Shown piece by piece: positions 3,920-57,330 of a stretch of 64,000 bases of DNA. The stretch lies in NCBI GenBank assembly GCA_000091205.1, contig AP006494.2, one strand, 5' to 3'. The position numbers and the translations under genes were made by a program. Numbering within the stretch: the first letter of the stretch is position 1; each line of letters starts with the position of its first letter. The notes beneath the pieces are model-generated. The model searched no databases and was not told the origin of the DNA. It was given only the letters and a program-made list of their open reading frames with translations. This stretch comes from Cyanidioschyzon merolae (lineage: Eukaryota).

Positions 3920-5370
3920 AGATCGGCCTCAGAAGTTTTTGTCTTTCAACTCAGTTTCGTGGCAAGTCTGCTGCGGTGTGCAGTAGGCGGTTGAAATCTC
4001 CATGGAATGTACTGTACCGATCGTAGACGAATCGCCAATAGAATATGTTGTTTGCTGAACAGTGCACGGAGGGTTTCATTTCTCCATCGGATCAGTGATA
4101 CCACAATACCCATATGGTTGAGGAACACTGAACGAAGCAAGTACACGTGGTCTGCATTAAAACAACCGATATTCTCGAAGACTGCGACCTGTTAGTGGTA
4201 TAAACCAACCCACCGGACACGTTCCGGAAAGCGAAATGAACAATAGTAGGCAGCACGGGCGCCGCTTTTCTCAATTGCCTGTTCGCGTGATCCTGAAAAC
4301 ACTGGGATGCAGTCGGAATAAACTTCTGGTTCACGAACGGACATCTTCCACCAAAATCGGAACGAGAGCGTTCTCAGAATGTCGCGGTCGGTATGAAGCA
4401 GAGCATCATCGGTTTGTTTTACCGGTCGATGAGACTCGCTTCGGAAAAAGACGGTCCGAGCGTATATGGGTATTCGTGGCGGGGGCGCCCCCTTCTATGT
4501 ACAATCAAATTCGATGAGGACGATGACATCAACTGTCCTAGATGTAGTGGATTCTAGTGGCGGCCGCAGTTTCGCTCGTAGGCAAGGCTCACACAACAGC
4601 ATCTACATGCTTAAATCATTGAAGACATTTGCCTCTGACGTTTGATCACGTTCGTCCATTGGATATCGAGGCATCTCACTCTTCGCTTTACGTAACTGCA
4701 TTTGCTGCGCGTGCCGGAGGTAGAGCCGGTCTTTTCTTCCCTGTACGCCTAGTGCCTTAACTCCATCGACGGAGCGTTTCCATCGTGAAACGTAATGATC
4801 GCTCTAGTAGGCGAATCGTTGAAGCGTACATCACACGGTGACACGTTGACACATACCGTCTTTTACCAGCAAGTGCTTCTCCCTTTAGGATGGTTCTCAC
4901 CCAGGCACATAAATAAGTGCGTTCATTTTAGAAAAATAAGGGATGAGCTCGGACGTACATTTCAAAAGGTCGAGTTTGAGCAGAGGCAGTGGAGCGCTTC
5001 GGCTATAGAAAACTACGAAGCGCTGACCGAAGAGCAAATGGAAAGGAGGGCGAAAGCTCGTGGATTGCTTGCACCAGTGAGTACAACGAATGATGGCAAG
5101 AAACGTATGGAGTTCGTGAACCGAGACTTTAACGCCGCCATCAATATCAGGAGATGTGCCGTGGTGGAGCATAGACCTCCAGAGTGGACAAGAAGGTGTT
5201 TTGTTGGACAACCTCCCAAAGTCGAACTATATGAGAAAAAATTTGAAGCAGTAGAAGGTGGCCTGTCCCAAAAGACTGCAAGGCATCTGCACGTCAGTTG
5301 GCTACGTTTCCTCCAAGGCGCGTTGCCGCTACTACTGTGCACCGCTGGCGACGTTCGACTTTTGAATGGC
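3920..5370 (+). mobile_element. Composite repeat copy: HTH-like small ORF (4007-4195) plus non-coding segment plus Fanzor/TnpB-like C-terminal fragment; second copy at 29885-30950 (-)
   Basis: Nucleotide-level homology to the reverse complement of about 29885-30950 over more than 1 kb (for example gtatatgggtattcgtgg, gatgaggacgatgacatca and cgtagacgaatcg blocks). The peptide MYCTDRRRIANRICCLLNSARRVSFLHRISDTTIPIWLRN matches MYCIDRRRIVYKNYCLLNSARNTAFLLQVSHTTVFKWLRN on the other copy. Confidence 0.6.
4795..5299 (+). pseudogene. Fanzor/TnpB-like nuclease, C-terminal fragment (zinc-finger remnant plus RuvC-III)
   Basis: EEQMERRAKARGLLAPVSTTNDGKKRMEFVNRDFNAAINIRRCAVVEHRPPEWTRRCFVGQPPKVELYEKK aligns residue-for-residue with the 39354-39740 ORF. 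RDFNAAINIRR is the RuvC-III signature of TnpB/Cas12/Fanzor. The stop codon is lost and the ORF runs on into flanking DNA. Confidence 0.65.
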
Positions 5371-6781
5371 TATTGGCTGCATGGAGCAAACTCGAAAACG
5401 ACGGCGGACGGGATGTTTTCATACCCTCGGCTTTGACTGGAGACAAGCGCTCGCGACTGCCTTTATGCCACCAGAACCACGAGGCTTTTCCGCAGCCGCG
5501 TGCCAACGCGCAACACGTTGGCAGACGGTACAGCCTCGAGCTCGTCGACGGACGCTTTCAGAGCGTCGGCTACAAATGCTATACGTCAGCCGTCGAGAGT
5601 TTCTGTGGCAACTCGCAGCGGGCGCGGCAACGCTGGGCTTTCACAGTGTGAAAAAACCTGTGGCGCCAGCGGCTTCAAACTCGGCACCACCGGCGCCCGT
5701 GAATGGGCGCTTGGCACCACTGGGTGCTATCTTCGACACGATGATCGGCTCTTTTCTACCACCGCGACCTGAGCGACTCTTATCGAGGCGAATTCGGCAT
5801 AAAGGAGCACGCTCTGTTCTCTTGGTCGGGGAGACACACACGGACCGACAACACCATCGGGTGCAACTGGCGTTGCTGGACTCGTTTGTGAAGCATGTTC
5901 GAGGTCAGCGGAATGAGTCGATTGCAGGAGCTCCAATTGCGATCGGCATGGAGCATTTCTATCGGCAGCATCAAGTGCATCTGGATCGGTACATTGCGGG
6001 CAAGATTGAGCTACGACAGTTACTCGCTATTACTCGTTTCGAACTTACCTTTGGGTATAGCGCGCAACTTTGGCAGGATATTTTGGAGTATGCACGGGAA
6101 AACCGTATTCAGGTTGTTGGTCTCAATACTCCGTTCGAATTGGTGCAGCTGGTTGCCCACTACGGCCTGGATCACTTACCAGAACGTTTGTATGAAGTGC
6201 TTCCTCGCGATATGGATGTGCATGGTAATGCTGCACACCGTGAGCGTTTTATTCAGAGGATGAAAGCGTTGGGGGTGGAAGCGCATGGTCCACTCATTAA
6301 CGACGAGGCAGCACTGCAGCGAATGTATGAATCGCAGGTGCTCTGGGACGAATACATGAGCGAATCGGCGGCCTTGTGGCTAGAGCGGAACCCCCGCGGT
6401 CACTTGTGTATTTTTGCGGGTAATGGTCACGTCGAAGGCCGTGTTGGGATTCCAGACCGCCTGACTCGTCGTTCTGGGAGGCCGACCTTCACCGTCGTGC
6501 CGTATACGGTGCCGTTCCAATCAGACGGCTGGCCCGATATACCGCATCCCGGCAACAGAGATGTCGGAGATTGGCTCTGGTACCTGCCTGTAGGATCTGG
6601 GGGTGCCGAATCTGACGAATCGGACCCCAAGTCGCAGCGACAGCAACGGTTCGGGGAGCGTTTCGGCTATCGAATCGCACGCAGTACCGAGTCCGACATG
6701 AGACTGATGGGGCGAGGCGCAGCCAGAACCATTCAGAGAGGTACGCAGACGAAATCTGTGGACGAGCCGGACTGGGTATGA
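5366..6781 (+). CDS. ChaN/Tiki-like (haem-binding uptake / iron-regulated family) protein with twin-arginine-type signal peptide; the true start may be a downstream Met
   Basis: SRREFLWQLAAGAATLGF (RR followed by a hydrophobic h-region) at about 5585-5640, preceded by an approximately 70-aa basic leader. VLLVGETHTDRQHH and a GNGH motif are typical of the ChaN/Tiki/TraB GxxH fold. Confidence 0.55.
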   Translation: MAIGCMEQTRKRRRTGCFHTLGFDWRQALATAFMPPEPRGFSAAACQRATRWQTVQPRARRRTLSERRLQMLYVSRREFLWQLAAGAATLGFHSVKKPVAPAASNSAPPAPVNGRLAPLGAIFDTMIGSFLPPRPERLLSRRIRHKGARSVLLVGETHTDRQHHRVQLALLDSFVKHVRGQRNESIAGAPIAIGMEHFYRQHQVHLDRYIAGKIELRQLLAITRFELTFGYSAQLWQDILEYARENRIQVVGLNTPFELVQLVAHYGLDHLPERLYEVLPRDMDVHGNAAHRERFIQRMKALGVEAHGPLINDEAALQRMYESQVLWDEYMSESAALWLERNPRGHLCIFAGNGHVEGRVGIPDRLTRRSGRPTFTVVPYTVPFQSDGWPDIPHPGNRDVGDWLWYLPVGSGGAESDESDPKSQRQQRFGERFGYRIARSTESDMRLMGRGAARTIQRGTQTKSVDEPDWV

Positions 6782-9688: not shown

Positions 9689-12600
9689 CTACAGTCCAGA
9701 ACGCGACGTCTGTGACGCACTGTCCGAGCTCGACGCCACCGGGTGACGCCTGCTGGGGACGCTACTGCTCCGACCGCTGGTGGCGCTTCGTGCTCGACTA
9801 ACTCGAGCCATGTCGAGGTTCATCGCCTCGAGACTGTCCAGATTACGAAAGGAGAAATCGGAAAAAGCGGGATCTGCCAAGGTAAGCACGCATTGCGATT
9901 CACTCGATGAGGGTCTGTTTGCCTTGTAGCGTGCTCGTCGGCCAGATTTGGCAAGGTTCACATTCGGATCGCTATAACTCGCTTCTGGTGGCCTTTCCGA
10001 AGACGAAACCCCAGCGCTCGCCTGAACTGGTGCGCTGCCCTCGCGTCCTATATTGGAACGCGCTAGCGTAGCTCGTCGAAAAGGATCCACGGCGTTGTTG
10101 TTGTTGTTGTTGAAATCGTCGTCGTCGTCGTCGTCGTCGTCGTTCTCGATATCGCCCTCACTACACAGGTTCGAGTCGCTACTTGAATCTTCGAATAAAA
10201 GCATACCGTCGCTGGTATTCCAAACATTGCGCGTGGGTGTTGTTGCCGCAACAACTGCTACGCTCGTCGCGTCGCTACCACGCAAACGCACATTGGATGA
10301 ACGTAGAACGCTTGGACTGGTGCATACCGATGCCGATCGTTCTCGATTCTGTTCATCGGCGGACGTGCTGACCGACGGATCCCGTTCTGTTTCCGAAAGC
10401 CAGCCGCGTGTAGGCGCTCGTCGACGCAAACAATGCTGCAAGAGCTGCTCCCGGGAGCGTTGCCGTCGATTGCGTAGGGTCCGCATGTCGACGCGTCGCC
10501 ACCCTGTTTCCGTCGAGCAAGTCGCAGACGATGACCAGCTCGGTACTTCCGTCTGTTTCCAGTCCATTTCCGGATGCGAAGTTTCCGACTGAGTTCCAGC
10601 TGGCTCCGAAGGCATCGCCGAAGCCGCTGCACCAGTGTTCCCCGAGACTCCCACGGCATGAGGCGAATCCGGTACCGCGACGATTTGCGTCGCTCTACCC
10701 AAAGCGCCGTCGGAGTCAGTGCTTACGTCGCCTGTTCCTGCTATCGACGTCGCCTCTGAGAGCGTCTCCTGCCCCTGAGTGCGCGTCGTGTGAGCGATGG
10801 AGCAATCGGCGGATATCCGTTGCGTCTTGTCTGCATCGAGCTCATGCTCGGGTACCGTGTACGAGAGAGACCATCCCGGGCGGTGCCGATAGAGCCCGTC
10901 AGCGCATGGCGCATCTCGGACCTGATCCTCAATGCCTTCTGCCGAATCTGTTGCCTGGCTCGATGTTGTGATGCCGCTCACCACGATCTGGTCGCTTAGG
11001 GACGAGTTCTCCGCGTTCACTGCATGCAGCAACCGCTGCGGCATAGTTTCCGCTCCCGAACGGGACAAAGGCTCCATGGATACCCCTGCAAGCGCCGTAC
11101 CATCGCTCCAGCGACACGCTCGCTCTGCAACCAATACCGACTCGTTGTGTTCGCATGTCGTATCTATAGCACTTTGCTCTCGGACAGACGATGAAGATAA
11201 TACAGGGCGCTCGGCATCATGTGAAACGGCAGGCAAAGCCGGGATCCCCAGATCGAGCGCTCCCGATGCAGCACACGGCGACGAGCGCGGTGCCGGCTCT
11301 CGTATGCCGCCAGGCGCCGCTGGTGCTCTGGAGACACCGTAGCAGCACGCGCTGCTCGAGGTCGCAAGTGGCTCTGTGGAACAAACTTTCCCATATGTAG
11401 AACAGTGCATGCCGCACGCCGCAGTGCCCTCATCGGCGCTACGCCAGTCGCCATCCGTGGGATTTTCCCGCGGCCAGCAATCCGCCGTAGCGCACCAGCG
11501 CATCATGACCTTCTGTCCACCCTGTCGCATTTCAAGATGCGCTGCTACGTCACTCCAGCGAGGCTCCGAAGCGTGCACAGACTGTCCACCCTGTCGCATT
11601 TCAGGATGCGCTGCTACGTCACTCCAGCGAGGCTCCGAAGCGTGCAGAGCCTCGGATGACGCGATCGCTGCGGTGCGTGTCTCGGGGACACGCATCCGTG
11701 ACGACGACGACAACGACAACGGCACGGACGCAACATGCGACTTCGAGGCCGTCACCAGCAACGGCAATGCTTCTGCTCGTTCTACGTCGCCCAGGCCGTG
11801 CTCGCTAAGCGTTCTCATTAGTTTCTGGGTGCTCTCGTCGTCAGGAGAGAGCGATCCGACCGCTTTGCGCGACGAAAAGTAGCTGGTGTCATCGGCGGCA
11901 GCAAACTGGGGTACGAAAGCCGGTGGCTGATTCCTTACATGCTCAAAATCAACATCGCGGAAAAAGGGATGGGCTTTCACCTCTGCTGCACCACGAGCAC
12001 CCAGTCTTTTGGAGGGATCCGGCTCCAAAAGACGCTGAATGAGGTCACGTGCCTCGGCACTCATGGCCTCATCGACATCGTCAGGCCACTGGATTCGACC
12101 CGACAATATGTTCGAGAAGATGCCACGCACAGAGCTCGCGTGAAAGGCAGGGATGCCCACGAGGAGCTCAAAGAGGACAACACCGAGAGCCCACCAGTCC
12201 ACAGCGAAACCGTGACCCGTTCCCAGCAGCAGCTCGGGAGCCAAATAGTCGGGAGTGCCCAGCGGCGGCTCCACAGGTGCGACCACCGTGGTGCCGCCAA
12301 CCGGGCTACCCGATTGACTCTCGGTTGCCAACGTCTGAGGTGACGGAGAACGGACACCTCTGACTCCATTCGCCCACAAGTGCCCTGTGTGGCTCTCAAA
12401 CGGACCGGCATACCCAGATCCGCCAGTGCTCGCAGCAGCCGAAAACTGACCGCGTGCATCCGACGCTGTTAGGGTGTTTTGTCGCCCGGCTGTGCGTGTG
12501 CCAGCTTGTACGGAACTCGTGGTCGTGTCCACAAGACGCATATCCACGTCACGCTGCAGGGGTACTGTGGACGAGCCTCGCTGGGTCCTGACCTCGGAAC

Positions 12601-17599: not shown

Positions 17600-18799
17600 A
17601 AAATAGTGACAGCAAGCACCTGCTCACGGCTTTTCGTACGGTGTGGCCGCCGCAGAAGCCCCGCTCGCCGGCGATGGCAACACACCGGAAACGACACTGG
17701 CCCCCGTGTTTCTCTGGAGTGCTGCTGCTGAGACCCCAATGGGTTCACAGCCAATACCAGCTGTTACAGCGTCCGCGTATTCGGTGTTCGCTGTCTCGAG
17801 CTGGCAGCGCAGTGCGCGAGGAGTACCAGATGGGCCCGTTTCAAGCTGCCCTGCGAGTGCCACGACGGTATTGTCCAGGTTGTCGTGAGGCACTGGGATG
17901 GACAGATTGGGAAATGGGACAGATTTGCCATCTGAGTGACTGCGGCGGCGGCGGCGGCGGCGGCGGGATCTCGACTTTGCGCATCGATCTGCGATCTGGG
18001 ATTTTTTCTCAGATGTCAAAAAGTGCCCAGTGATCAGGGATCCCAGATTGCGGGATGGGTAGGTATTCGTTATCGAAAAAGCGTCCATGATGCTTCACGA
18101 TACCTCCAAGTTCCATTACTTGTGCTTCCGCTAGGATGCACTGGTCGTTTCGTACGTTCTATCGAGCGCTAAGTGTCTGCTTTGCTGCACCCTGCTGAAG
18201 CGTCTACACCGACAGAGCAGATGCTGCGCGGAGACAGCGCGGCGTTGCTGTACCACTGATGACTTCGGCTCGAGGCGCGGTCCATCTGATAAGGGATCAG
18301 GATTCATGATCATTCTGGGATCCAGCGATCTGCGTAGACAGACGCACTGGCTGCGGCAGCGCGAAGCGATATGCTACGAGATAATCGTCATATTGGCGAC
18401 GCCCAGACGCAGTCTAAGTGTACCTGGTCTCGGAATAAACCGCGTTGCCGACGAGTTACTCAGATCTCAATAGAGTACTAGGCACTGGGTGCAGCATGGA
18501 GCACCAGCCTGGCAGACTTGTCCGGCTCGCAGGACATTCCGCCTGGAAGGTAAACGTTCGAAATATGGAAACATTTCCCCCCTTTGAACGTTTACCGTAG
18601 AGGGGAAAGAACATTTTATCCAGTTGGTAGTTAGTCCTTGGTTTATGATCCGTTTTGTACATGGTGCGCTCGAGATGCGCACACCCATATCTGGCAGGCA
18701 TGCGACCTAGCATGTGCATCTCGCCGCTGAGGGGAAACGCGAACCTGATCATGAGCGTATTGCTCTGACTAACAAGATGTATTTGCGTTCAAGGCACAA

Positions 18800-19915
18800 G
18801 AGAGTATGTTTTTCTCAGTTCAATTGTGTGTCAGCTCTCAAGTGAGTGTATTCGAGCGATTTTTCGCGGGTTGTAGCAGAAGCTTTCAAAGTGCGTTGTT
18901 TTGAAAAATAGTCGAGATAAATCGGGAAAAATATGGTTGTAGAAGTGGAGGATCCTGGAGGGCCCCGTATCGCCGGCTGCCGCAAAAAAAAACCGAAGAA
19001 CAGTGCCAACCAAAGAGGAACAACACAGGACCAGGAAGCAAGGCGGCGAGGGCCGACACCAAAACCTGCAGGGAAAACGACAGTACGACGAGATGGAAGT
19101 GAAAGCCTGTCTTTTACGCTGCGTCAAGGATCCGTGCAGGGCAAAGTTGCAAGAGGGCATCAGAAACCGTGTCGATTCGTACTCCAGGAGTATTGGAAAG
19201 GCCTGTTCAGGAATGATGCATGTGGTGAAGGTGATGTGTCGCGACGTGACGGACATCCAAACCGTCGAGGTTCCGGACGAGATTTTCGGCAAGACCTTCA
19301 TTCGTCACCTGATGGTTGGAACAGGGGAAACGTCGAGGAGAAATGAGCGAGTTCGTGCCCTCCACGAAAATTACACCAAATACCGCTCCAACGATACTCG
19401 ATACACGGGAGACTCGCGTATTTACGAATACGGGGCGATCAAGTACCTCACGAACCTGAAGAACCACGTGACCATGAACCTCAAAGGCTTCATGATACGC
19501 TCCGTCTTTGCCCTCGACCCGGAGCTGTCTCGCATAGGGATACGGGCCATCATCGACGGCATCAAGAACGATAGTCGGAATGAACAGGAGATCGAATTTG
19601 CCGACAAGAAGACATCACGCAGAGGAAAGAATGAACCTTCTGGAATCCCTGCGGCTATTCAGGAGCACCGTGCAGACTCGGGGCTTGTCAACCCAGCGGA
19701 TAAAGTATCAGAGATGAAAAAGATGACGAAAGATTTTATCCCCGCGTCCAGCGCTATTCCGTGTTTTTGGAGCGAGAACTCGAACGCCAGGCGGAGATGG
19801 AGCTCACTAGGGGAATACGTGAAGATTCGGAGAAGCGGAAGGCTTTCGTAATGGGTAAGCGCTTCAACGTCATTCCATTATGCAACAGCAAGTAGCACTT
19901 TGTGCGAATCGACGC
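18800..19915 (+). mobile_element. Fanzor-like element, 5' part only (left UTR plus N-terminal about 275 codons), truncated at a junction with an unrelated left-end repeat
   Basis: The 5' non-coding block (ttcaaagtgcgttgtt...) and coding sequence match 37250-38330 of the longer copy. YDEMEVKACLLRCVKDPCRAKLQEGIRNRVDSYSRSI matches YDEMVVKTFLLGHMKDPYKEKLRDAIETRVDSYSKSI, and IKYLTNLKNHVTMNLKGFM matches MKYITNLKNHLTKNLERFM. There is an internal frameshift near 19700. Confidence 0.6.
19093..19915 (+). pseudogene. Fanzor-like N-terminal coding fragment (frameshifted, truncated)
   Basis: Shares a conserved ATG (gagATGgaagtg versus gagATGgttgtg at 37481) and about 55 percent aa identity with the 37481-38330 region. 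The track ORF start at 19003 is a GTG, not ATG. Confidence 0.55.
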
Positions 19916-19917
19916 TA

Positions 19918-20140
19918 GCGTCCTTGAATGCACAAAACGACCAGTGCATCCGAGAACAGGTAATGGAACATGGAGGTAGGGCGCATCATGATGGACGCTT
20001 TCCCAAATGCTTGTACCCAGCTCGCAATCCTGGGTCCCTGGTCAACGTAAACGTTTTTTGAACAAAAATGCCTGAAGCAGCTGCATCGGGACTGCAATGC
20101 TGCCAGTATCGACCTTCGACAGTTGATAACGGAACTGGAG
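19918..20140 (+). repeat. Left-end-type repeat, copy A (solo), family shared with 36900-37080 and 57055-57330
   Basis: Three-way alignment: aaacgacc..ccgagaa..ggtaatg..ggaggtagg[g/t]gc..at[g/c]a[t/c]ggacgctttccc[a/g]aa..cg[c/a]aat[c/t]ctgggatcc[c/a]tgg..aacgt..ttg..aaaaa..., extending to aacggaactgg. Confidence 0.55.
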
Positions 20141-35028: not shown

Positions 35029-37480
35029 CCTTTGGAGAAGTTTGTTGCCTAACCGACCCTACCAAACCAGCTTCAGAAGTCGCGGTTTTGGTCAACTCAA
35101 ACGTGGACTTTGCGTCGTGCTGCGGACAAACCCAGACAGCGCTGGTTGTCGCTTGGCGGTGGCGTCTCGCGGGCGCAGCACGCCGGCGTTGCCGCTGCGG
35201 ATGCTACACTCGAGTCGGATAAAAATCGAGCACAGAATAGCTTTCCATCTCTTCCCAACACTTCATTTATTTCATAGATTTTTCTTAAATGTACAACCTG
35301 AGCGATCGAAGTGCAGCAATGAGAGATGAAGAGATCATGCGTAAATGAAGGATTCTTGGTCGTTTTTTGGAGTGGCTCTTTCGACGCTTTTCCGCTGGAC
35401 CTCGTTACGTCATCACGATGAAGGTGCGTCACCACCGACGTCACCACGCGTGCCCGAAATAACCGATATTATTATCCAGCTCACACGTTCAAGGTTTTAG
35501 CCTTCTCCGATCCTTACGTGCAGTATGCTCTAATTCACGTACCCGTCGAGGTTTCGAGCTTTCTATTTGAAGTCATCTGCTGGGCGCACTCGTTGGCGCC
35601 TATGGATTGACGGGACATATACTCGACGGCGTGCCTCGATGATGTTTCCGCAGGCTCATGCAGAATATGTTATGAGTTTCTCATGTCAACGGATCGATTC
35701 CGTTCCAAACGCGAATCCTCCTCTCTTCGTGGCCATAACTACAACAAAACGCGACAGCAGCATGATTCCTGTAACGGGAGACGCGCCAACAGGCTCCCGC
35801 CTCTTCTGTCTGCACGGAAACGGGTGCCGGATTCGCACCTGAGCCATCACAACGATCGCTTGGAGTGGAACGTGCGCCAATGCTTCGCGTGAAAGGAGTA
35901 TCGACGGATCGAAACTTCTCGACTTGTTTTGCATACCGAGCCTCGCTCCTGATCCTGTTTCCGTAGCGGACAATGTCGCATTCCACAAATCCTCTATCGA
36001 ATAAGACAGCGTGCCGTTGCGCGTGCAGCGCACAGAGTGCTCATCGACGGGATCGCGAAGAAGAAGCTCTTCTTCGTAGGGTATTGCACAGGGCGCGTAA
36101 ACGGAGGAAAGCATCGAGGCGCGCCGCTCTCAACCCGTCCAGGGCAAGTACCGGGCAATGACGCAAGCGTTCACGCGCCACAGATCTACGCTCGAGGAAG
36201 GACGGGGTTTCGTGGACTTCCTGAAACATCTAAGCACATTCAAACGTCATCGTTGCAAAAGACGCACTGTGGCTGTATAAAACGAATAGAAACAACGCAA
36301 ACGAAGCGTACATCGTACCTACTGCTTCTGCGTAAACAACGTCGACAACACCCAGAAGCCCCCACTCGCGACATGCACGTCACCATCAACATCCCGCAAC
36401 TGCTTCCAACGGAGCTGGGGGCAACGGCGAAACCGACGTATTGAACGCCAGCGATAAAAGAGCATATACAAGAGCAATCATCAAAAAACCCGCAAAGACT
36501 TGTGTTGTTGATGAAGATAGAAACCTAGAACTTAGTGTTTACGTCCGAGTTCACGAAATGGACCCATCCCATGGTTCATACGAACATCGCTGCCTAGCGC
36601 AGGCGCTCCGCGAGGATGCGATCATTGCGTGCAGATCGCCTCAGCGAGAGAGCGCCCCATCGAGATGCTCGCCCCAGGGTATATTCTAACAGCCAAGTTT
36701 CTCCAGCGTGTCGTGCAACGAAGACAAGCCTGCATCCGCAGACTGTCCGAGCACAAACTGACGACGAGACCCGATTCTACGTCGGGTGAACCACGCCTCG
36801 AGCCGACGCCCTTTGTGGTATAGCAAAGCCGTTCGAGCTCTATGAACTATCTGCTCCAGCGGTTCAAGCGCAAAGGTGGATGATTAGGGTAGGTACGAGG
36901 CACACACGATAGGACGTATGAAACGACCAAAATATCCGAGAAGAAGTCTAGGTAATGTAACTTGGAGGTAGGTGCTTCATCACGGACGCTTTCCCGAAAG
37001 CCGTTATCCGTTCCGAATTCTAGGATCCATGGTGAATGAAAACGTCTTGTCAATAAAAAAATCGCGCTCAATGGGCGCACCCCGGAGATCGGGCAGTCAA
37101 CTGACGCGATGCGCGTGCCGTTGTTGAAGGGAAACTCAATTGGGATCAGTAACGTGTTGTTCAGCTGTGAACGTCGGATATCGGTTCAGGCCATAGCAAA
37201 GTACAGTCTTTCGGTTCATTTTTGTTTCAAACTTCAAACAAGTCCAGTCAAGTGTTTTTTTGCAGTATATAACAGCAGGGTTCAAAGAGCGTTCTTGTTC
37301 AAAAAAAACTAATAAAAGGAAAACTATGCAAAAGTAAGTCGACGATCCTGGAGGCTCAGTGTCGCCGGCTACCAGAAGAAAACAAAAAACAGTGCCGAGT
37401 CCAGAAGAAAATGAAGAGAAGGAGGACTGAAAGGGGAGGCTCTACGTCGAAGGCGGCAAGAAAGACGACTGTACGACGAG

Positions 37481-39740
37481 ATGGTTGTGAAAACCTTTCT
37501 TCTTGGACATATGAAGGATCCCTACAAGGAAAAGTTGCGAGACGCTATCGAAACACGTGTCGACTCGTACTCGAAGAGTATTGTCAAGGCGTCGTCAGGA
37601 CTGATGCATTTAGCGAGGGACATGTACGAATACGTCGCGCACATGGAAACAGTCGAGATTCCAGACGAGTTTTTCGACAAGACGTTTATTGGTCGCCTGA
37701 TGCTTGGTACAGAGGAAGCGCGGAAGGAAAATGAGCTAGTGCATGCCCTCCACGAAAATTTTGCGGAATTCCGCTTCGAGGGTATTCGAATCAAGGGTGA
37801 CTGGGGTATTTAAGACTCTGGGGCAATGAAGTACATTACGAACCTGAAGAACCATTTGACAAAGAACCTGGAACGCTTCATGAAACGCGCCGTGTTTGCA
37901 CCCTACCCAGGCATCTCTTGCAATGGAAAATGGGCGATTATCCATGGCATCACGAATGATCGAAAGTATGAAGATGAGATCGAATTTGTCGACAAGAAGG
38001 CGTCAAAAGAGAGCACGAAAGAAGCTTCTGCGATCCGCGCGGTTTTACAAGAGCATCGTGCGCGACTGGGGCTGGCGAATCCAACAGGCAAGGTATCAGA
38101 GCTCAAAAAAGATAAGGAGAGATACTATCGCCTCATCCTGCGCTATTTTGTGTTGTTGGACCGTGAACTCGAACGCGAAGCGGAGATGAAGCTGAGTGAA
38201 GAGACAAATGAAGAGTGGGAGAGACGGAAGGCTTTCCTAACGGGGAAGCGCGTCAATGTGGTTCCGTTGGGCAACATCAAGTCACATTTTGTGACTATCG
38301 ACTCCGCAGTCCTTCATGGCATCATGAGGGAGATCAGTCCCGAGTTCGATGTTAGCAGGGAGGAATTCTCCGGTGAAAACCGGGAGACGTACTGGATGAG
38401 CATCTTCGATTTCAAACGTCCCAAAGTGAGCAAGAAAAAGGTATTCACAGGGTCGATCGAAACAGATGGAGTAGCCTTGTGTGTACACTATCGGCGGTTG
38501 AAGAAAGTTCGTCCAACTCCGCCTTCGGCTGCGCCCGTCATGAAGGATGAAGAAAACAAAGAGGAGGTTCCTGTGACGCAGGAGGAGCAGGATGACGACC
38601 TTGTCGTTGGCGTGACGAAGGATGAAGAAAACAAAGAGGAGGATCCTGTGACGCAGGAGGAGCAGGATAACGATTTTGTCGTTGGCGTGACGAAGGATGA
38701 AGATGAGAAGGAGGCGAGTCCTGCGACGCAGGAGGTGGAGAATAACGACTTTATGGTTGACGCGACGAAGCATGAAGAAAAGAAGGAGGCGGATCCTGCG
38801 ACCCACAAAGTGCAGGATAACGACTTTGTCGTTGGCGCGGACCCTGGGAATACGAGTATCATAAACATCGCTGCTCCCAAGCGTGCGGAAGATGGTACTG
38901 ATGGTAACTTACGTCAGAAAGACATGCGTCTGTTGAGGTTCTCGAGAGCCAGATACTATCGAGAATCGGGAATCATAAATGCAAGGAAGAAAATCGAGAC
39001 TTGGAATTCAGGAATGAAAGAGCACCTGGAAGCTTCGAGCGAGGTGACGAGCCGAGGAGCGGACTTTGAAGCTTTTCGGAAATTCACGGAAGTTCGCGTT
39101 GCTCATTGGGAGGCGCCGTGGGAGGAGTATACCAAGCCCCGGTGGGCTCGTTGGCGTATGAATTTGTATTGTGGGAAGCAGCGGGCATTCGCGAATTTTT
39201 TCAATCAACTGAGTGCCCTGAAGGAGAATCAAAGTGAGAGGTTGGTAGTGACGTACGGAGCAGGGCGCTGGATGACCCAAAAAGGAACTACGCCAGCTCC
39301 AACGACGAGAACGTACAAGGAGTGTGCACGGCGTTTTGTTACGATACCTGTAGATGAGTTCCGAACCTCGTATACACACCATGAGCTGGTGTGTACACTT
39401 CAGAGAGTTCGAGATGGAAAAGTGCCAGACGAACCCTGAGGATATGAAAAAGTACGGACCGCTGACGGAGGAGCAAATGGAAAGGAGAGCGAAATTTCGA
39501 GGGCTACTTGCATTAGTAAGTACAACCAGTGATGGCACGAAACGTATGGAGTTTGTGAACCGTGACTTTCATGCCGCTGTGAATATACGGAGATGCACGG
39601 TGCTGGAGAAGAGACCTCCAGAGTGGACAAGAGAGAACTTTGTTGGACAACCTCTCAAAGTCGAACTATATGAGAAAAAGTTGGAAGCAATAATAGGTGG
39701 CCGGTCCAGAAAGGCTGGGACGCATCTGCACGTCAGTTGA
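37481..39740 (+). pseudogene. Fanzor-like nuclease ORF, disrupted by in-frame TAA (37811-37813) and a +1/-2 frameshift in a tgtgt run (about 39387-39397)
   Basis: Three track ORFs (37481-37813, 37826-39439, 39354-39740) concatenate into one protein when aligned to the 19093 and 4795 copies. The TAA replaces a sense codon (GI*DSGAMKYITNLKNH versus YEYGAIKYLTNLKNH). The frame changes exactly where ..HHELVC / CVHFREF overlap. Confidence 0.65.
38543..38840 (+). repeat. Four tandem approximately 75-bp repeats inside the Fanzor ORF encoding 25-aa acidic units (KDEENKEE[V/D]PVTQEEQD[D/N]D[L/F]VVGVT)
   Basis: Read directly from the protein and DNA. The last unit runs straight into the RuvC-I strand [12 protein letters not shown]. 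Confidence 0.75.
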
Positions 39741-39827
39741 TGACGATTTGTATAGCGCGCGTTCGCCGCCACTACTGTACACTGCCAGCGACGTCGTTCG
39801 ACTTTCGAAGGGCGGTGACACAAGACC

Positions 39828-40871
39828 GTGTACATAAACATGTCTCAGTTGGATGACACACACGATCTACTAAACATGGGGGATGCGGGTTCCGGATCGA
39901 AAGAATCAGACTCTGCCTTGAGGCGTGGTGGTGACGTTTCGGGCGGCAAAGCAGCGCCAGTGAACGGTGCCGTGGCTGCTTCCGAAAGCGACAACGCAAG
40001 CAGCAGTAGCGCCGCATTACGTAATAGCAGCGCGTCGTTCCGGGAAGGTCCACCTGGAAGGCCACCTCTATTGAGCCAGAGGTTTACGGTGGCCCGTCAG
40101 CATCTACCGGGTCAGCTGCATGAGATCCTTATGTGGCGGAACAAGTACCGCTCGGGGCTCGCTTTCGCCTTGGGTAACTTGTTCTTCTATTTCACCACGT
40201 TCGGGGAACTGAGCATCATCACCGTATTCTCTATGATCGTGTTTTGGATCGTGCTACTGGGTTCGTGTCTCGTTCTCCTGAGCCGCGCACTGGCGTACCT
40301 GACGTCAGCGAGCCCCGTACCTGGCGCATCACCCGTTGGTACGACGGCACCGACGCGTCGCTTGCTGAACCGAGAAACTGCGGAGCGGCTCACGGAGAGC
40401 ACCATGAAAACGGTTAACGGGTTGGAGAACCTTTTGCGCGACGCAGCGCATTGTCGTGATTGGCAGCTCACCGTGAAGGTGCTCCTTGGCTCCTATCTGA
40501 TCGGCAAACTGGGACCGCTGTTTCTGAATATGTACATGGGATGGCTCATCTTTCTCAGCGTAATGACGTTACCCAAGGTTTACGAATGGAAGCAGCGTGA
40601 CATTGACGATCTCATTCGGGAAATTCAACCCGTTCTCCAGAGCAAGCTCTATGAAGCCGAGGCGCTCATCAAGAATCATATCAGCAGCGTGCTCTCCCAG
40701 ATACCGCCCAAGGTCCACGAGTACTCCGAGATGCTTCGAGCGCAGCTGCGCGCGCTGACGGGCGCATCCGACCGTGCACGAAGCAGCAGCAGCCGCCCGC
40801 CGTTTTCAGCCGGAACCAGTGCCGCAACATCGTCGTCCATGACAACCAGCGCTGAAACAAAGGAAGACTAA
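39828..40871 (+). CDS. Reticulon-like protein (reticulon homology domain)
   Basis: W..KYRSGLAFALGNLFFYFTTFGELSIITVFSMIVFWIVLLGSCLVLLS, then a loop, then VKVLLGSYLIGKLGPLFLNMYMGWLIFLSVMTLPKVYE. Two long hydrophobic hairpins with the conserved GN..F and W motifs of the RHD. Confidence 0.65.
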   Translation: MYINMSQLDDTHDLLNMGDAGSGSKESDSALRRGGDVSGGKAAPVNGAVAASESDNASSSSAALRNSSASFREGPPGRPPLLSQRFTVARQHLPGQLHEILMWRNKYRSGLAFALGNLFFYFTTFGELSIITVFSMIVFWIVLLGSCLVLLSRALAYLTSASPVPGASPVGTTAPTRRLLNRETAERLTESTMKTVNGLENLLRDAAHCRDWQLTVKVLLGSYLIGKLGPLFLNMYMGWLIFLSVMTLPKVYEWKQRDIDDLIREIQPVLQSKLYEAEALIKNHISSVLSQIPPKVHEYSEMLRAQLRALTGASDRARSSSSRPPFSAGTSAATSSSMTTSAETKED

Positions 40872-43191: not shown

Positions 43192-44046
43192 CTGGCCGAA
43201 GCAGGTACTGCGACCTGGATCAGTCGAGTCTCCGTCTATACCTATGTACACAGCGTGGTGTTGATTTTCCCTGGAGGTCTTGGAGCATGTCGACGTCGAG
43301 CCAAGGCGCCAAGCGCACCCATCTACCAGGCATGTATCCGCTTTCCCGGACACGACAGACAACGCCGCCCGAGAAACCCATAGCCACGCGAGCACGCGCC
43401 CTGGCATACAGGCCCGGTGCCGTTGTGTCCCCCGTTTCCCGAGACAGGTCATAAACAAACCTCAGAAAAGCAGACTCCCACGACTAACGGTTACCGCTTG
43501 CACGCCTCATACGCTGTGCATGCTGCGTACGATCGACGGCATCGAATAAGCGCGTCATGAGGTTGCCGTTTGAGAGCGCCGGCCCAGAACGCCAAGCTAT
43601 GAAAAGCGCGCAGGTACCGGAAAAGCAGCTTGGTTTGTTACTGGAGCGAGGTTGTGTGCAGCTTTAGGAGGCGAGACATGCTGGAGACCGCGTTTCTTCA
43701 GTTGTTCCCGGTTGAAAAACCAGGAACAAGCAACCATTCGTCAACTGTGGTGGCACCGTGCGAAATGTTTGCATGCAGCATCTCGTCCACTGGCCTGGGA
43801 ACGTGCACGAACCGCTGGACGGTGCACGGAAGCCTTGCACCCGTCGTTTGGAATCCAGGCGGACACGAACAGTCCAGTCGCGATATCATGCAGGCATGCC
43901 GCTGACAACGCTGAAGGCACTGCTCCAGCGCTCTAGTCGTGTTGGATTAGAATGAAGCACTGAACTGCTTTCTGTATTTCTGGGCTGGGATTTTTCTCCG
44001 ACTTTTTTCTCTGAGACATACGGCCTCGGCGCTGGGAACGCAGCTA

Positions 44047-44672
44047 CAAGGGTTTACGGATGCGTACGCAGTTTGAGAATTCTCGGACGTCTTTTCGGTG
44101 TGGCCTGTTCGACTTTCTGCCGCTGGCTTTCGGTACATTACCGGACTGAAGATGGCTGGTGACGCTCTCGGAAACGGAGTCGTAAACTATCCGACATCAT
44201 GATCGAACGCTCACGTACAAATATTCATTCCTCAGTTTTCCTTACGTGTGGCATAGTTAAATCGTGCATGCTTTCTGTTTCTCTATCTTTCTATTTGACG
44301 CAACTCCCGGGGGCTGCAGTTCGTTGTCATGGACCTACGATCTTGTGAATTAGTCACCAAGCGCTACCATCGAGTTTTTTCCCTCGTCAATCCAGCTGCA
44401 CAAATTGCTATGTGCACAAGTTTCGCTGAAACAGAAAAAAGATAGACAGACGGCCAGCGTACGAAATCTGAGCATGCCAAACGTAAGGAAAACTGAGGAA
44501 TGAATACTTGTACGTGAGCGTTCGATCATGATGTCGGATAGTTTACGACTCCGTTTCCGAGAGCGTCACCAGCCATCTTCCGTCCGGTAATGTACCGAAT
44601 GCCAGCGGCAGAAAGTCGAACAGGCCGCACCGAAAAGACGTCCGAGAATTCTCAAACTGCGTACGCATCCGT
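44047..44672. repeat. Large near-perfect inverted repeat (2 x approximately 205-bp arms, 44047-44254 and 44468-44672, about 97 percent identical) around a 213-bp spacer
   Basis: Reverse-complementing 44468-44672 reproduces 44049-44254 with about 5 mismatches. The identical peptides MYRKPAAESRTG.. and MYRMPAAESRTG.. on opposite strands in the ORF track are its signature. Confidence 0.9.
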
Positions 44673-44890
44673 AAACCCTTGGTGGTGCTCGCTGAATGTC
44701 CGGAATGTACATCTGAAAAGAGTATCGAACAAGTCGCAAGGCAGGAGCACAGCGAGTAGTTCTGTGTTCGATTGTAATCTGACACGGGTGTTCGGTACAC
44801 GCATCAAAGTACATGCGTATCGTCGCGAAACTGCACGGTTCCCATGCTTGCCGCCTACCACGCAGCACACCCGTGATAAATCGGATATCG

Positions 44891-57054: not shown

Positions 57055-57330
57055 TCCTGAAAGTAGGTGCGGCAGCATAATGGACGCTTTTTCAACTACC
57101 AATATCCATGCATTCCGCAATCTGGGATCCATGATCAATGGAAACGTGTTGTCATCGAAAAAGAATCAGCACTAGTGCTGCGGACGTGGCACTGCGATCC
57201 CGTGAACGCATCCAAGAGCGGACGCACCGAGAACGGAACTCTTGGCTTTGGCTGCCGTTGCCGACCGCTGTGGCATACGTTGAAGCGACTGTTTCGGCAC
57301 TTGCAAGGTATATTACAGAAAAGTGCGTTG
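57055..57330 (+). repeat. Left-end-type repeat, copy C (solo, internally shortened), immediately upstream of riboflavin synthase ORF
   Basis: The head (gtaggtgcggcagcataatggacgctttttc..cgcaatctgggatccatgatcaatggaaacgtg) aligns with 36965-37060. The tail (ggtatattacagaaaagtgcgttgtactaaatg) aligns with the Fanzor 5' UTR at 37255-37300 and 18880-18920. Confidence 0.55.

Follow-up and report, generated by a model that had tools for sequence, protein, structure and literature searches.

The right end of the relic Fanzor1 repeat CMe-1A in Cyanidioschyzon merolae: a candidate omega-RNA scaffold and an association with host gene starts

The stretch of DNA analyzed here, referred to throughout as the window, comprises 64,000 nucleotides (nt) of contig AP006494.2 (assembly GCA_000091205.1) from Cyanidioschyzon merolae. 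It has a G+C content of ~56% and long intronless open reading frames (ORFs), and two of its proteins, the reticulon-like BAM80829.1 and the ChaN-domain BAM80821.1, match C. merolae 10D entries exactly. The window holds three related copies of a repeat that is CMe-1A, the Fanzor1 repeat of this organism already known since 2013, and our subject is the right end of that repeat, which a first-pass annotation had read as a candidate omega-RNA (guide RNA) scaffold adjoining host start codons. Copy 3 was delimited by BLAST at 37211-39813, and its Fanzor-bearing unit occupies 37061-39816 on the plus strand, with the right boundary ...GGGCGGT. Copy 2 (18815-19913, plus strand) keeps the 5' part alone and has no right end. 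Copy 1 (4943-5373, plus strand) keeps the 3' part alone, consisting of the last ~125 codons and the tail (~430 nt), with the canonical stop lost and the terminal hairpin at ~5352-5368. A search of the window for further solo tails ("ghost" guide RNAs) returned none besides those of the two copies that have a right end.

CMe-1A was described as present in ~150 copies in C. merolae, ~3 kb in size and each ~80% identical to the consensus (Bao & Jurka 2013, PMC3627910). It was reported to have neither terminal inverted repeats (TIRs) nor recognizable target site duplications (TSDs) and was left unclassified, and its 5' 635 bp were found in common with a second repeat, TE-N2_CMe (PMC3627910). The element in the window agrees with this description in organism, size, ~80% identity, Fanzor1 ORF, lack of TIRs and TSDs, and sharing with TE-N2_CMe; what goes beyond it here is the right-end hairpin, a right boundary that is exact and yet fuzzy, and an insertion bias beside host gene starts. 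No guide RNA for CMe-1A is described in the literature that we searched.

The Fanzor1 pseudogene of copy 3 (37481-39755, plus strand) has a conceptual translation of ~680 amino acids (aa), in which the RuvC-I, -II and -III motifs read GADPGN, VDEFRTS and NRDFHAAVNI, the family-wide forms being DPG, VDEFRT[ST] and NRD[FL]NAA[IM]NI. A profile of 12 family members matches the solved PpFz1 (9cf0, E=4.2e-17) and SpuFz1 (8gkh, E=5.4e-11), with the RuvC D/E/D residues aligned, and on these protein comparisons the CMe-1A ORF is assigned to Fanzor1. Pfam searches with the separate ORF pieces and with full homologues gave nothing above cut-off; the match to Cas12f1-like_TNB was weak (best E=0.0012) and under it. 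A C4 zinc ribbon (OrfB_Zn_ribbon/TNB), which Bao & Jurka counted in the conserved Fanzor/TnpB motif (PMC3627910), was looked for between RuvC-II and RuvC-III in 11 aligned relatives (alignment A4), and no conserved Cys/His set was present; in this respect the protein clade of CMe-1A is unlike characterized Fanzor1. Just 5' of RuvC-I, the ORF contains four tandem 75-nt repeats (38536-38835, plus strand) encoding acidic, K/E/D-rich units of 25 aa, whose number differs among homologues (P0001, P0006, P0011). The most distant protein matches are chlorophyte (Gonium, Haematococcus).

All three window copies are pseudogenes, copies 1 and 2 being fragments, and the ORF of copy 3 is broken three times: by a stop in frame (37811-37813), by a +1 frameshift close to 39395-39400 and by a TGA (39738-39740) that ends it prematurely. 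This TGA had been taken as the Fanzor stop codon; it is specific to copy 3, the consensus there being TGG, which copy 1 retains, and the canonical stop of the family lies further on, as a TAG (39753-39755). The accompanying remark that copy 1 has lost its stop is correct for the canonical TAG, which is CAA in copy 1, and incorrect for the equivalent of 39738-39740.

A non-coding tail of 61 nt (39756-39816) follows the canonical stop and ends at the right boundary that the copies share; its parts are all given here on the plus strand. Next to the stop lies a small hairpin (39757-39769) with the consensus GGCG-loop-CGCC, which is GCG/CGC in copy 3; its stem is nearly invariant, its loop is variable, and it displays no covariation. 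It is followed by CCACTACTGTACAC (39769-39782), the best-conserved motif of the tail, with at least 90% agreement in most columns, and by the terminal hairpin CGTCGTTCGA-CTT-TCGAAGGGCG (39792-39814), after which GT forms the last shared bases.

That homology between copies 3 and 1 continues past the stop codon, as first noticed, is confirmed by pairwise alignment: 39381-39813 and 4943-5370 are 78% identical up to the end of the alignment. To delimit the element, relatives were fetched from metagenomes (218 matches, 80 loci kept), and their downstream flanks were grouped into 45 clusters, two of which (L049 and L070) represent one site, leaving 44 independent insertions, 2 from the window and 42 metagenomic. 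In all 44, the common sequence ends in ...CGAACGGCGTT (...GGCGTT), and no similarity is detectable between the downstream flanks of different insertions. The boundary originally placed at 39811 and 5368 accordingly moves 5 nt further, to 39816 (copy 3) and 5373 (copy 1, ...GGCTAT). The suggestion that additional copies should end at the same position beside unrelated flanks is borne out, with no homology well past 39811 apart from a fuzzy zone of 9-14 nt.

In this zone, the 9-14 nt after the hairpin are common, in graded lengths, to groups of otherwise independent copies. The shared strings, GTTGGTGTGTG, GATGGTGCG, GGTGGCTTGTCCAT and TGTT/TGTTTC/TGTTTCCAGGGG, form a G/T-rich zone, and GGTG occurs within the first 8 nt of 14 of the 44 copies, by a count made by eye and compared with ~2% by chance as estimated from base composition. 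The loci that share post-hairpin sequence are L026/L035/L001/L017, L011/L059/L029, L013/L032 and L055/L008/L063, and the corresponding zones of the window are 39817-39830 and 5374-5387. Such a fuzzy right end suggests that parental flank was carried along; "fuzzy right ends" have been reported for Replitron-1 and Chlamydomonas Helitrons (PMC10288648). For the guide-like segments predicted in the flanks, this means that the start of a guide is uncertain by ~10 nt; the flank beyond the shared end is indeed unrelated between copies. In copy 3, the host flank from the element end to the reticulon ATG (39817-39839, plus strand) is where a guide would lie if an omega-RNA was made, and the first 9-14 nt of such a flank may, in other copies, belong to a "fuzzy end". 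L042 (680-797) carries a tandem duplication of the final 51 nt of its tail, beginning at GCCACTAC..., directly upstream of a kinesin-like gene.

The terminal hairpin is the part of the tail for which structure is supported. Over 45 copies, its mean minimum free energy (MFE) is -10.2 kcal/mol, compared with -5.6 for shuffles, and in 38 copies, as opposed to 7, conserved G.U pairs make it more stable on the sense than on the antisense strand. G.U wobbles stabilize RNA hairpins more than DNA hairpins, and the sense-strand G.U bias favors RNA. In a second subfamily, AACGTTTTTC-TTTT-GAAAGACGTT replaces CGTCGTTCGA-CTT-TCGAACGGCG and still forms a 10-bp hairpin, its register shifted by three columns, despite ~6-8 substitutions, while clean double changes are found in the single copies L043 (G-C to U-A) and L001 (two outer pairs). 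Four hairpin pairs are changed on both sides, a number reached by only 7-12 of 500 shuffles, in a comparison whose alignment (A5) has rows picked among well-kept copies and whose shuffle control ignores relatedness. Observed hairpins average -10.8 kcal/mol, compared with -8.4 and -7.1 for simulated neutral decay of the consensus at 15-20% divergence. The family has maintained a 10-11 bp terminal hairpin as a structure, on the sense strand.

An alternative that bears directly on these figures is that the tail is a functionless leftover, with a chance palindrome in the terminal sequence and a conservation of structure that merely mirrors the shared ancestry of the copies. The sampling of well-kept rows and the blindness of the shuffle controls to relatedness leave room for it, as does a tail no more conserved than neutral sites. 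It does not account for two subfamilies that keep a 10-bp hairpin with different sequence and register, for compensatory doubles that arose independently, for stability above the neutral-decay simulation or for the strong strand asymmetry, and we judge it very unlikely.

The reading that we prefer, with confidence and doubt about evenly balanced, is that the tail is the right end of a dead CMe-1A copy that encoded an omega-RNA scaffold in its ancestors and is now a relic. In active ancestors, joint transcription of the last part of the ORF and the right end would have given an omega-RNA; the scaffold would have comprised the small hairpin, the linker CCACTACTGTACAC and the terminal hairpin, ending at the element boundary, and the guide would have been the flank adjoining that boundary. 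The same terminal hairpin probably also marked the end of the element for the mobilizing machinery. The source of Fanzor guide RNAs is the non-coding DNA 3' of the ORF, next to the right end, and they extend into the flank (PMC10432273, PMC10530073, PMC11423790), and the tail together with the last codons, ~90 nt of small hairpins, CCACTACTGTACAC, terminal hairpin and flank, matches this template in position, size and polarity.

Comparison with characterized systems reveals both likenesses and differences. The Fanzor1 omega-RNAs of SpuFz1, PpFz1 and GtFz1 (PMC10432273, PMC11423790) and the fRNAs (PMC10530073) are encoded at the end of the ORF or 3' of it and stop at the right end, as the CMe-1A tail does, and take their guide from the flank, the position predicted for CMe-1A. 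Their scaffolds are compact, with two or three stem-loops and a linker in 55-90 nt, and this tail is about as long as the smallest scaffolds known; that of SpuFz1 has 75 nt, with two stem-loops and a linker (PMC10432273), and that of PpFz1 is smaller (PMC11423790). In these systems, however, the right end is formed by a TIR of a defined transposon, of DDE type or another, and sequencing of ribonucleoproteins yielded the RNAs, whereas CMe-1A has no TIR and is described here from its DNA. The solved Fz1 RNAs also have a conserved 7-bp SL1, for which CMe-1A offers no supported counterpart, its guide-adjacent hairpin being the only one supported.

A number of observations weigh against an omega-RNA scaffold. 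Scored by agreement with the consensus over 25 aligned full-length copies, no part of the element is less conserved than the tail (0.80-0.83); the ORF overall gives 0.87-0.93, and sequence beyond the boundary ~0.5. At codon position 3, agreement is 0.73-0.87 in the RuvC region and 0.84-0.91 in the last 150 nt of the ORF, with similar values elsewhere in the ORF, so that synonymous-site constraint in those last 150 nt is not exceptional. The tail is conserved no better than synonymous sites, and the similarity between window copies, which had been read as conservation, is that of the ordinary common descent of repeat copies. An intact reading frame is present in none of the 25 full-length copies sampled.

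Further points on the same side come from folding. Both window tails were folded, as had been proposed, and 39650-39816 (z = -0.47) and 5212-5373 (z = +0.03) do no better than shuffles; the well-kept copy L059 folds at z = -2.4. RNAalifold on 44 copies recovered a 3-bp helix alone. A 7-bp stem in the last codons (a candidate SL1), a stop-codon hairpin and the GGCG/CGCC hairpin were each rejected, with ~87% of cells paired, a share not above that of column shuffles, and essentially no compensatory changes. We also rejected a helix of 10 bp that would pair the ORF segment AAAGTCGAAC (39657-39666) with the 5' arm of the terminal hairpin, which is in the MFE structure of both window copies and recalls the pseudoknot of TnpB guide RNAs: 86% of cells are compatible with it, its covariation is not significant, and it is mutually exclusive with the hairpin. 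Pairing of the kind that IS608 uses between guide and cleavage site was tried between the pre-hairpin segment and the flank, and native pairs were no better than swapped pairs. An Rfam search of 39200-39900 gave no match at E values up to 10. At the left end, no motif resembling a target-adjacent motif was seen; the bases 5' of it differ among copies, and many left ends abut other repeats. Finally, a hairpin at the end of an element that has neither TIRs nor TSDs fits a single-strand DNA transposition signal equally well.

Taken against the initial claims, the Fanzor1 ORF, the right-end position, the size and one covarying hairpin speak for the scaffold proposal, and the other helices, the folds of the window tails and the broken copies do not; likewise, compensatory changes support the terminal hairpin and none of the other candidate helices. 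The window hairpins themselves are weakened, to -11.6 kcal/mol in copy 3 and -6.9 in copy 1, from -15.9 in the consensus. With its three ORFs broken and its two hairpins weakened, the system in the window is a relic that is not functional here and gives no sign of present activity.

The DNA-level alternative gains from what is found at the other end of the element. The left boundary, ATCGCGCTC..., is common to at least 13 other copies with different upstream sequences, and a hairpin, GCGCTC-GGT-GAGCGC, stands 3 nt from it. The tail could be a transposition signal alone, its hairpin read as single-stranded DNA by a trans-acting transposase of HUH or rolling-circle type (IS200/IS605-, IS91-, Helitron- or Replitron-like), with no guide RNA involved. 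The absence of TIRs and TSDs (PMC3627910), hairpins near both ends (ATC-GCGCTC-GGT-GAGCGC at the left), variable 5' parts with a constant 3' end and the duplicated tail of L042 all agree with it, and specificity for the top strand is also expected under recognition of single-stranded DNA. On the other side, no HUH, RepHel or other transposase was noticed in the fetched loci, in which no dedicated search was run; the left end has no conserved target tetranucleotide; the asymmetric terminal inverted repeats of Helitron2 type were sought and not found; and the conserved G.U wobbles favor RNA over DNA hairpins. As the sole explanation we regard such a signal as unlikely. To our knowledge, the right end of all characterized TnpB/Fanzor elements serves as both guide-RNA source and DNA end. 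The two readings are therefore not exclusive, because the right end plays both roles in characterized TnpB systems, and a DNA signal complements the omega-RNA scaffold rather than excluding it.

CMe-1A, left unclassified in 2013, can be compared with several kinds of element. IS200/IS605 elements resemble it in lacking TIRs and TSDs and in carrying subterminal hairpins at both ends, and further in a right-end hairpin that lies, a few nt from the boundary, inside the guide-RNA scaffold, a putative one in CMe-1A, and in the frequency of non-autonomous copies with TnpB only. Unlike them, CMe-1A has no fixed tetra- or pentanucleotide 5' of its left end, resides in a eukaryotic host, and had no Y1 TnpA noticed in its loci, where no dedicated search was run. 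Helitron2 elements with Fanzor1 in Chlamydomonas (CRe-1,2,3) and Replitrons have, like CMe-1A, hairpins at both ends, a constant 3' end and variable or truncated 5' parts, and their fuzzy right ends, which carry parental flank, are similar to those of CMe-1A. Unlike those elements, CMe-1A has no asymmetric terminal inverted repeats, no variable TSDs identified and no RepHel or Rep gene noticed (no dedicated search was run). The Helitron2-type repeats were rejected on 20 copies, in which the reverse-complemented left end aligns briefly and at inconsistent positions. A Tc1/mariner (DDE_3) carrier was also rejected, CMe-1A being without TIRs and without TA target duplication.

Other repeats adjoin the left end. 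A repeat that we call X, with an A-rich 3' end (36673-37060, plus strand), abuts the left end of the Fanzor unit of copy 3 and is probably the TE-N2_CMe of Bao & Jurka (PMC3627910). In at least 12 independent copies it lies, facing either way, within a few bases of the Fanzor left end. Repeat X (~640 bp) also occurs elsewhere in the window, at 18003-18164 (minus strand), 19935-20068 and 57074-57165, and ~7 other copies have a third repeated module, Y (...GGACACGTGTCC...GCACGC), directly at the left end.

The nearest intact relatives are organized differently. P0049, a 699-aa protein with 41% identity, is identical in six contigs from different samples (L092-L097) with at least four different flanks; its copies lie beside a DDE_3 gene, in an element with 30-nt TIRs ending in TA, which is probably a currently active Fanzor1 transposon. 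After the Fanzor stop, P0049 and P0048 (L098) have a conserved 3' non-coding region of ~190 nt that ends sharply at the right TIR. Tc1/mariner-type (DDE_3) elements with Fanzor1 (SPu-1 and the P0049 relatives) have a sharply bounded conserved 3' non-coding region, as CMe-1A does, and this likeness in P0049 speaks for the omega-RNA scaffold, although CMe-1A has neither the 30-nt TIRs nor the DDE_3 gene of the P0049 relatives. Comparison of the CMe-1A tail with the 3' region of P0049 and P0048 gave no significant similarity, which also counts against the omega-RNA scaffold. These relatives show that the usual Fanzor1 architecture exists in the same protein clade; CMe-1A lost TIRs or never had them.

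Both right ends in the window lie close to host genes. The reticulon-like gene (BAM80829.1, 343 aa; 39840-40871, plus strand) is co-oriented with copy 3, and its ATG is 24 nt past the element end; the start codon earlier assigned to 39828 is a GTG, the annotated ATG being at 39840. The ChaN-like gene (BAM80821.1, 471 aa as annotated; 5366-6781, plus strand) has its ATG at 5366-5368, overlapping the end of copy 1 as had been stated and situated in the 3' arm of the terminal hairpin, where CGAACGG has become TGAATGG. Further in-frame ATGs are found at 5381, outside the element, and at ~5576. Some 75 residues along its annotated ORF, the ChaN-like protein (window 5366-5680) carries a motif of twin-arginine-like type, SRREFLWQLAAGAATLG, which would fit a bipartite plastid/lumen targeting sequence; metagenome gene calls for this protein begin at a Met just before the motif (401 aa).

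The proximity is real and family-wide. At each of the 44 right ends, we took the first downstream ORF that reached 120 aa and compared it with a null of 3000 random non-ORF window positions, taken in both directions; the counts are to be read with ORFs called mechanically, a null from one 64-kb window, and 42 sites from metagenomic relatives, not from the 10D genome. Within 60 nt of the right end, 16 of 44 insertions have the start of a co-oriented ORF (null 4.4%, p=2.5e-11); widening the distance to 135 nt gives 24 of 44 (null 10.1%, p=3e-13). The downstream ORF is co-oriented with Fanzor in 32 of 41 (null 56%, p ~0.008, computed for 31/41). Ends of convergent genes within 60 nt are not enriched (3/44, null 3.6%, p=0.21), and the left-end side has no comparable gene-start pattern. 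As a control for gene-start bias, repeat X had too few free 3' ends to be used. Pfam searches of ten downstream ORFs identified unrelated host domains above the curated cut-off in six, sub-threshold matches in two (PHD-finger, Vps54-like) and none in two; the families recognized are an HCO3- transporter, Rrp15p, an SMC protein (SMC_N from residue 4) and a methyltransferase. By eye, other downstream N-termini resemble a kinesin and an SPX-domain protein.

In the strains sampled, the copy 3 insertion has been kept: all ten loci with identical reticulon, which come from closely related strains, carry it, and a search for an empty site among them found none. Two contigs with identical reticulon, L088 and L091, have unrelated sequence upstream, with junctions inside the tail. 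That of L088 (L088:1378, window 39792) falls exactly at the start of the terminal hairpin, and that of L091 (L091:969, window 39765) falls just past the stop codon, where an aconitase-B-like ORF is joined on. Each junction is either a chimera of assembly or a genuine rearrangement at the tail.

Although the proximity to host start codons stands, it is not a consequence of guide-RNA logic. Candidate explanations for the association are strand-specific integration at promoter-proximal DNA, retention for an upstream function and right-end-anchored copying. Retention would mean that the right end is kept for host use, as promoter, transcription start or 5' untranslated region of the downstream gene, with selection at the host level acting locus by locus. 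Besides the 16 and 24 insertions close to co-oriented starts, this agrees with downstream genes that are diverse and genuine, some with evident true N-termini (as in the SMC protein), with copy 1, which retains its 3' ~430 nt alone and beside a gene, with the reticulon insertion kept in all closely related strains sampled, and with a left-end side that lacks the pattern. Set against these are a tail that diverges as fast as synonymous sites, the degraded hairpins of both window copies, the lack of an identified promoter motif and compensatory changes across whole subfamilies, which host-level selection leaves unexplained. We consider host use improbable. A scan for bacterial-type promoters and terminators is irrelevant for C. 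merolae and was uninformative.

Alternatively, and with a small probability, the spread of CMe-1A was polar and anchored at the right end, which would have come to lie at the 5' ends of host genes of the same orientation. In one version, copying would be one-ended and driven by single strands or a nuclease, with the 9-14 nt past the hairpin representing parental guide or flank used as microhomology; in another, integration would be strand-specific at promoter-proximal single-stranded DNA. If true, polar spread would explain the constant 3' end, the graded fuzzy right ends, the variable 5' parts, the lack of TIRs and TSDs and the enrichment at start codons.

Elsewhere in the window there are three unrelated repeats: an inverted repeat of 251 nt (91% complementary, 147-nt spacer) at 44040-44688, a 106-nt tandem duplication at 1548-1759 and a 69-nt tandem duplication at 11513-11650, the last inside a kinase ORF of 2636 aa.

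The guide-RNA candidate in itself represents a modest gain, as it concerns a Fanzor1 family known since 2013 that is extinct in this genome and unusual in being without TIRs and zinc ribbon. The polar association of right ends with gene starts is the most interesting lead and the one most worth follow-up, and C. merolae is genetically tractable. The insertion pattern, with right ends tens of bases from co-oriented start codons at a third to a half of the sites, bears on the role and movement of Fanzor elements without a recognizable transposase in eukaryotic genomes, and it raises the question of whether relics now act as upstream sequence for host genes in this very compact genome. If polar spread is true, CMe-1A would have supplied upstream sequence, from scattered sites, to dozens of genes.

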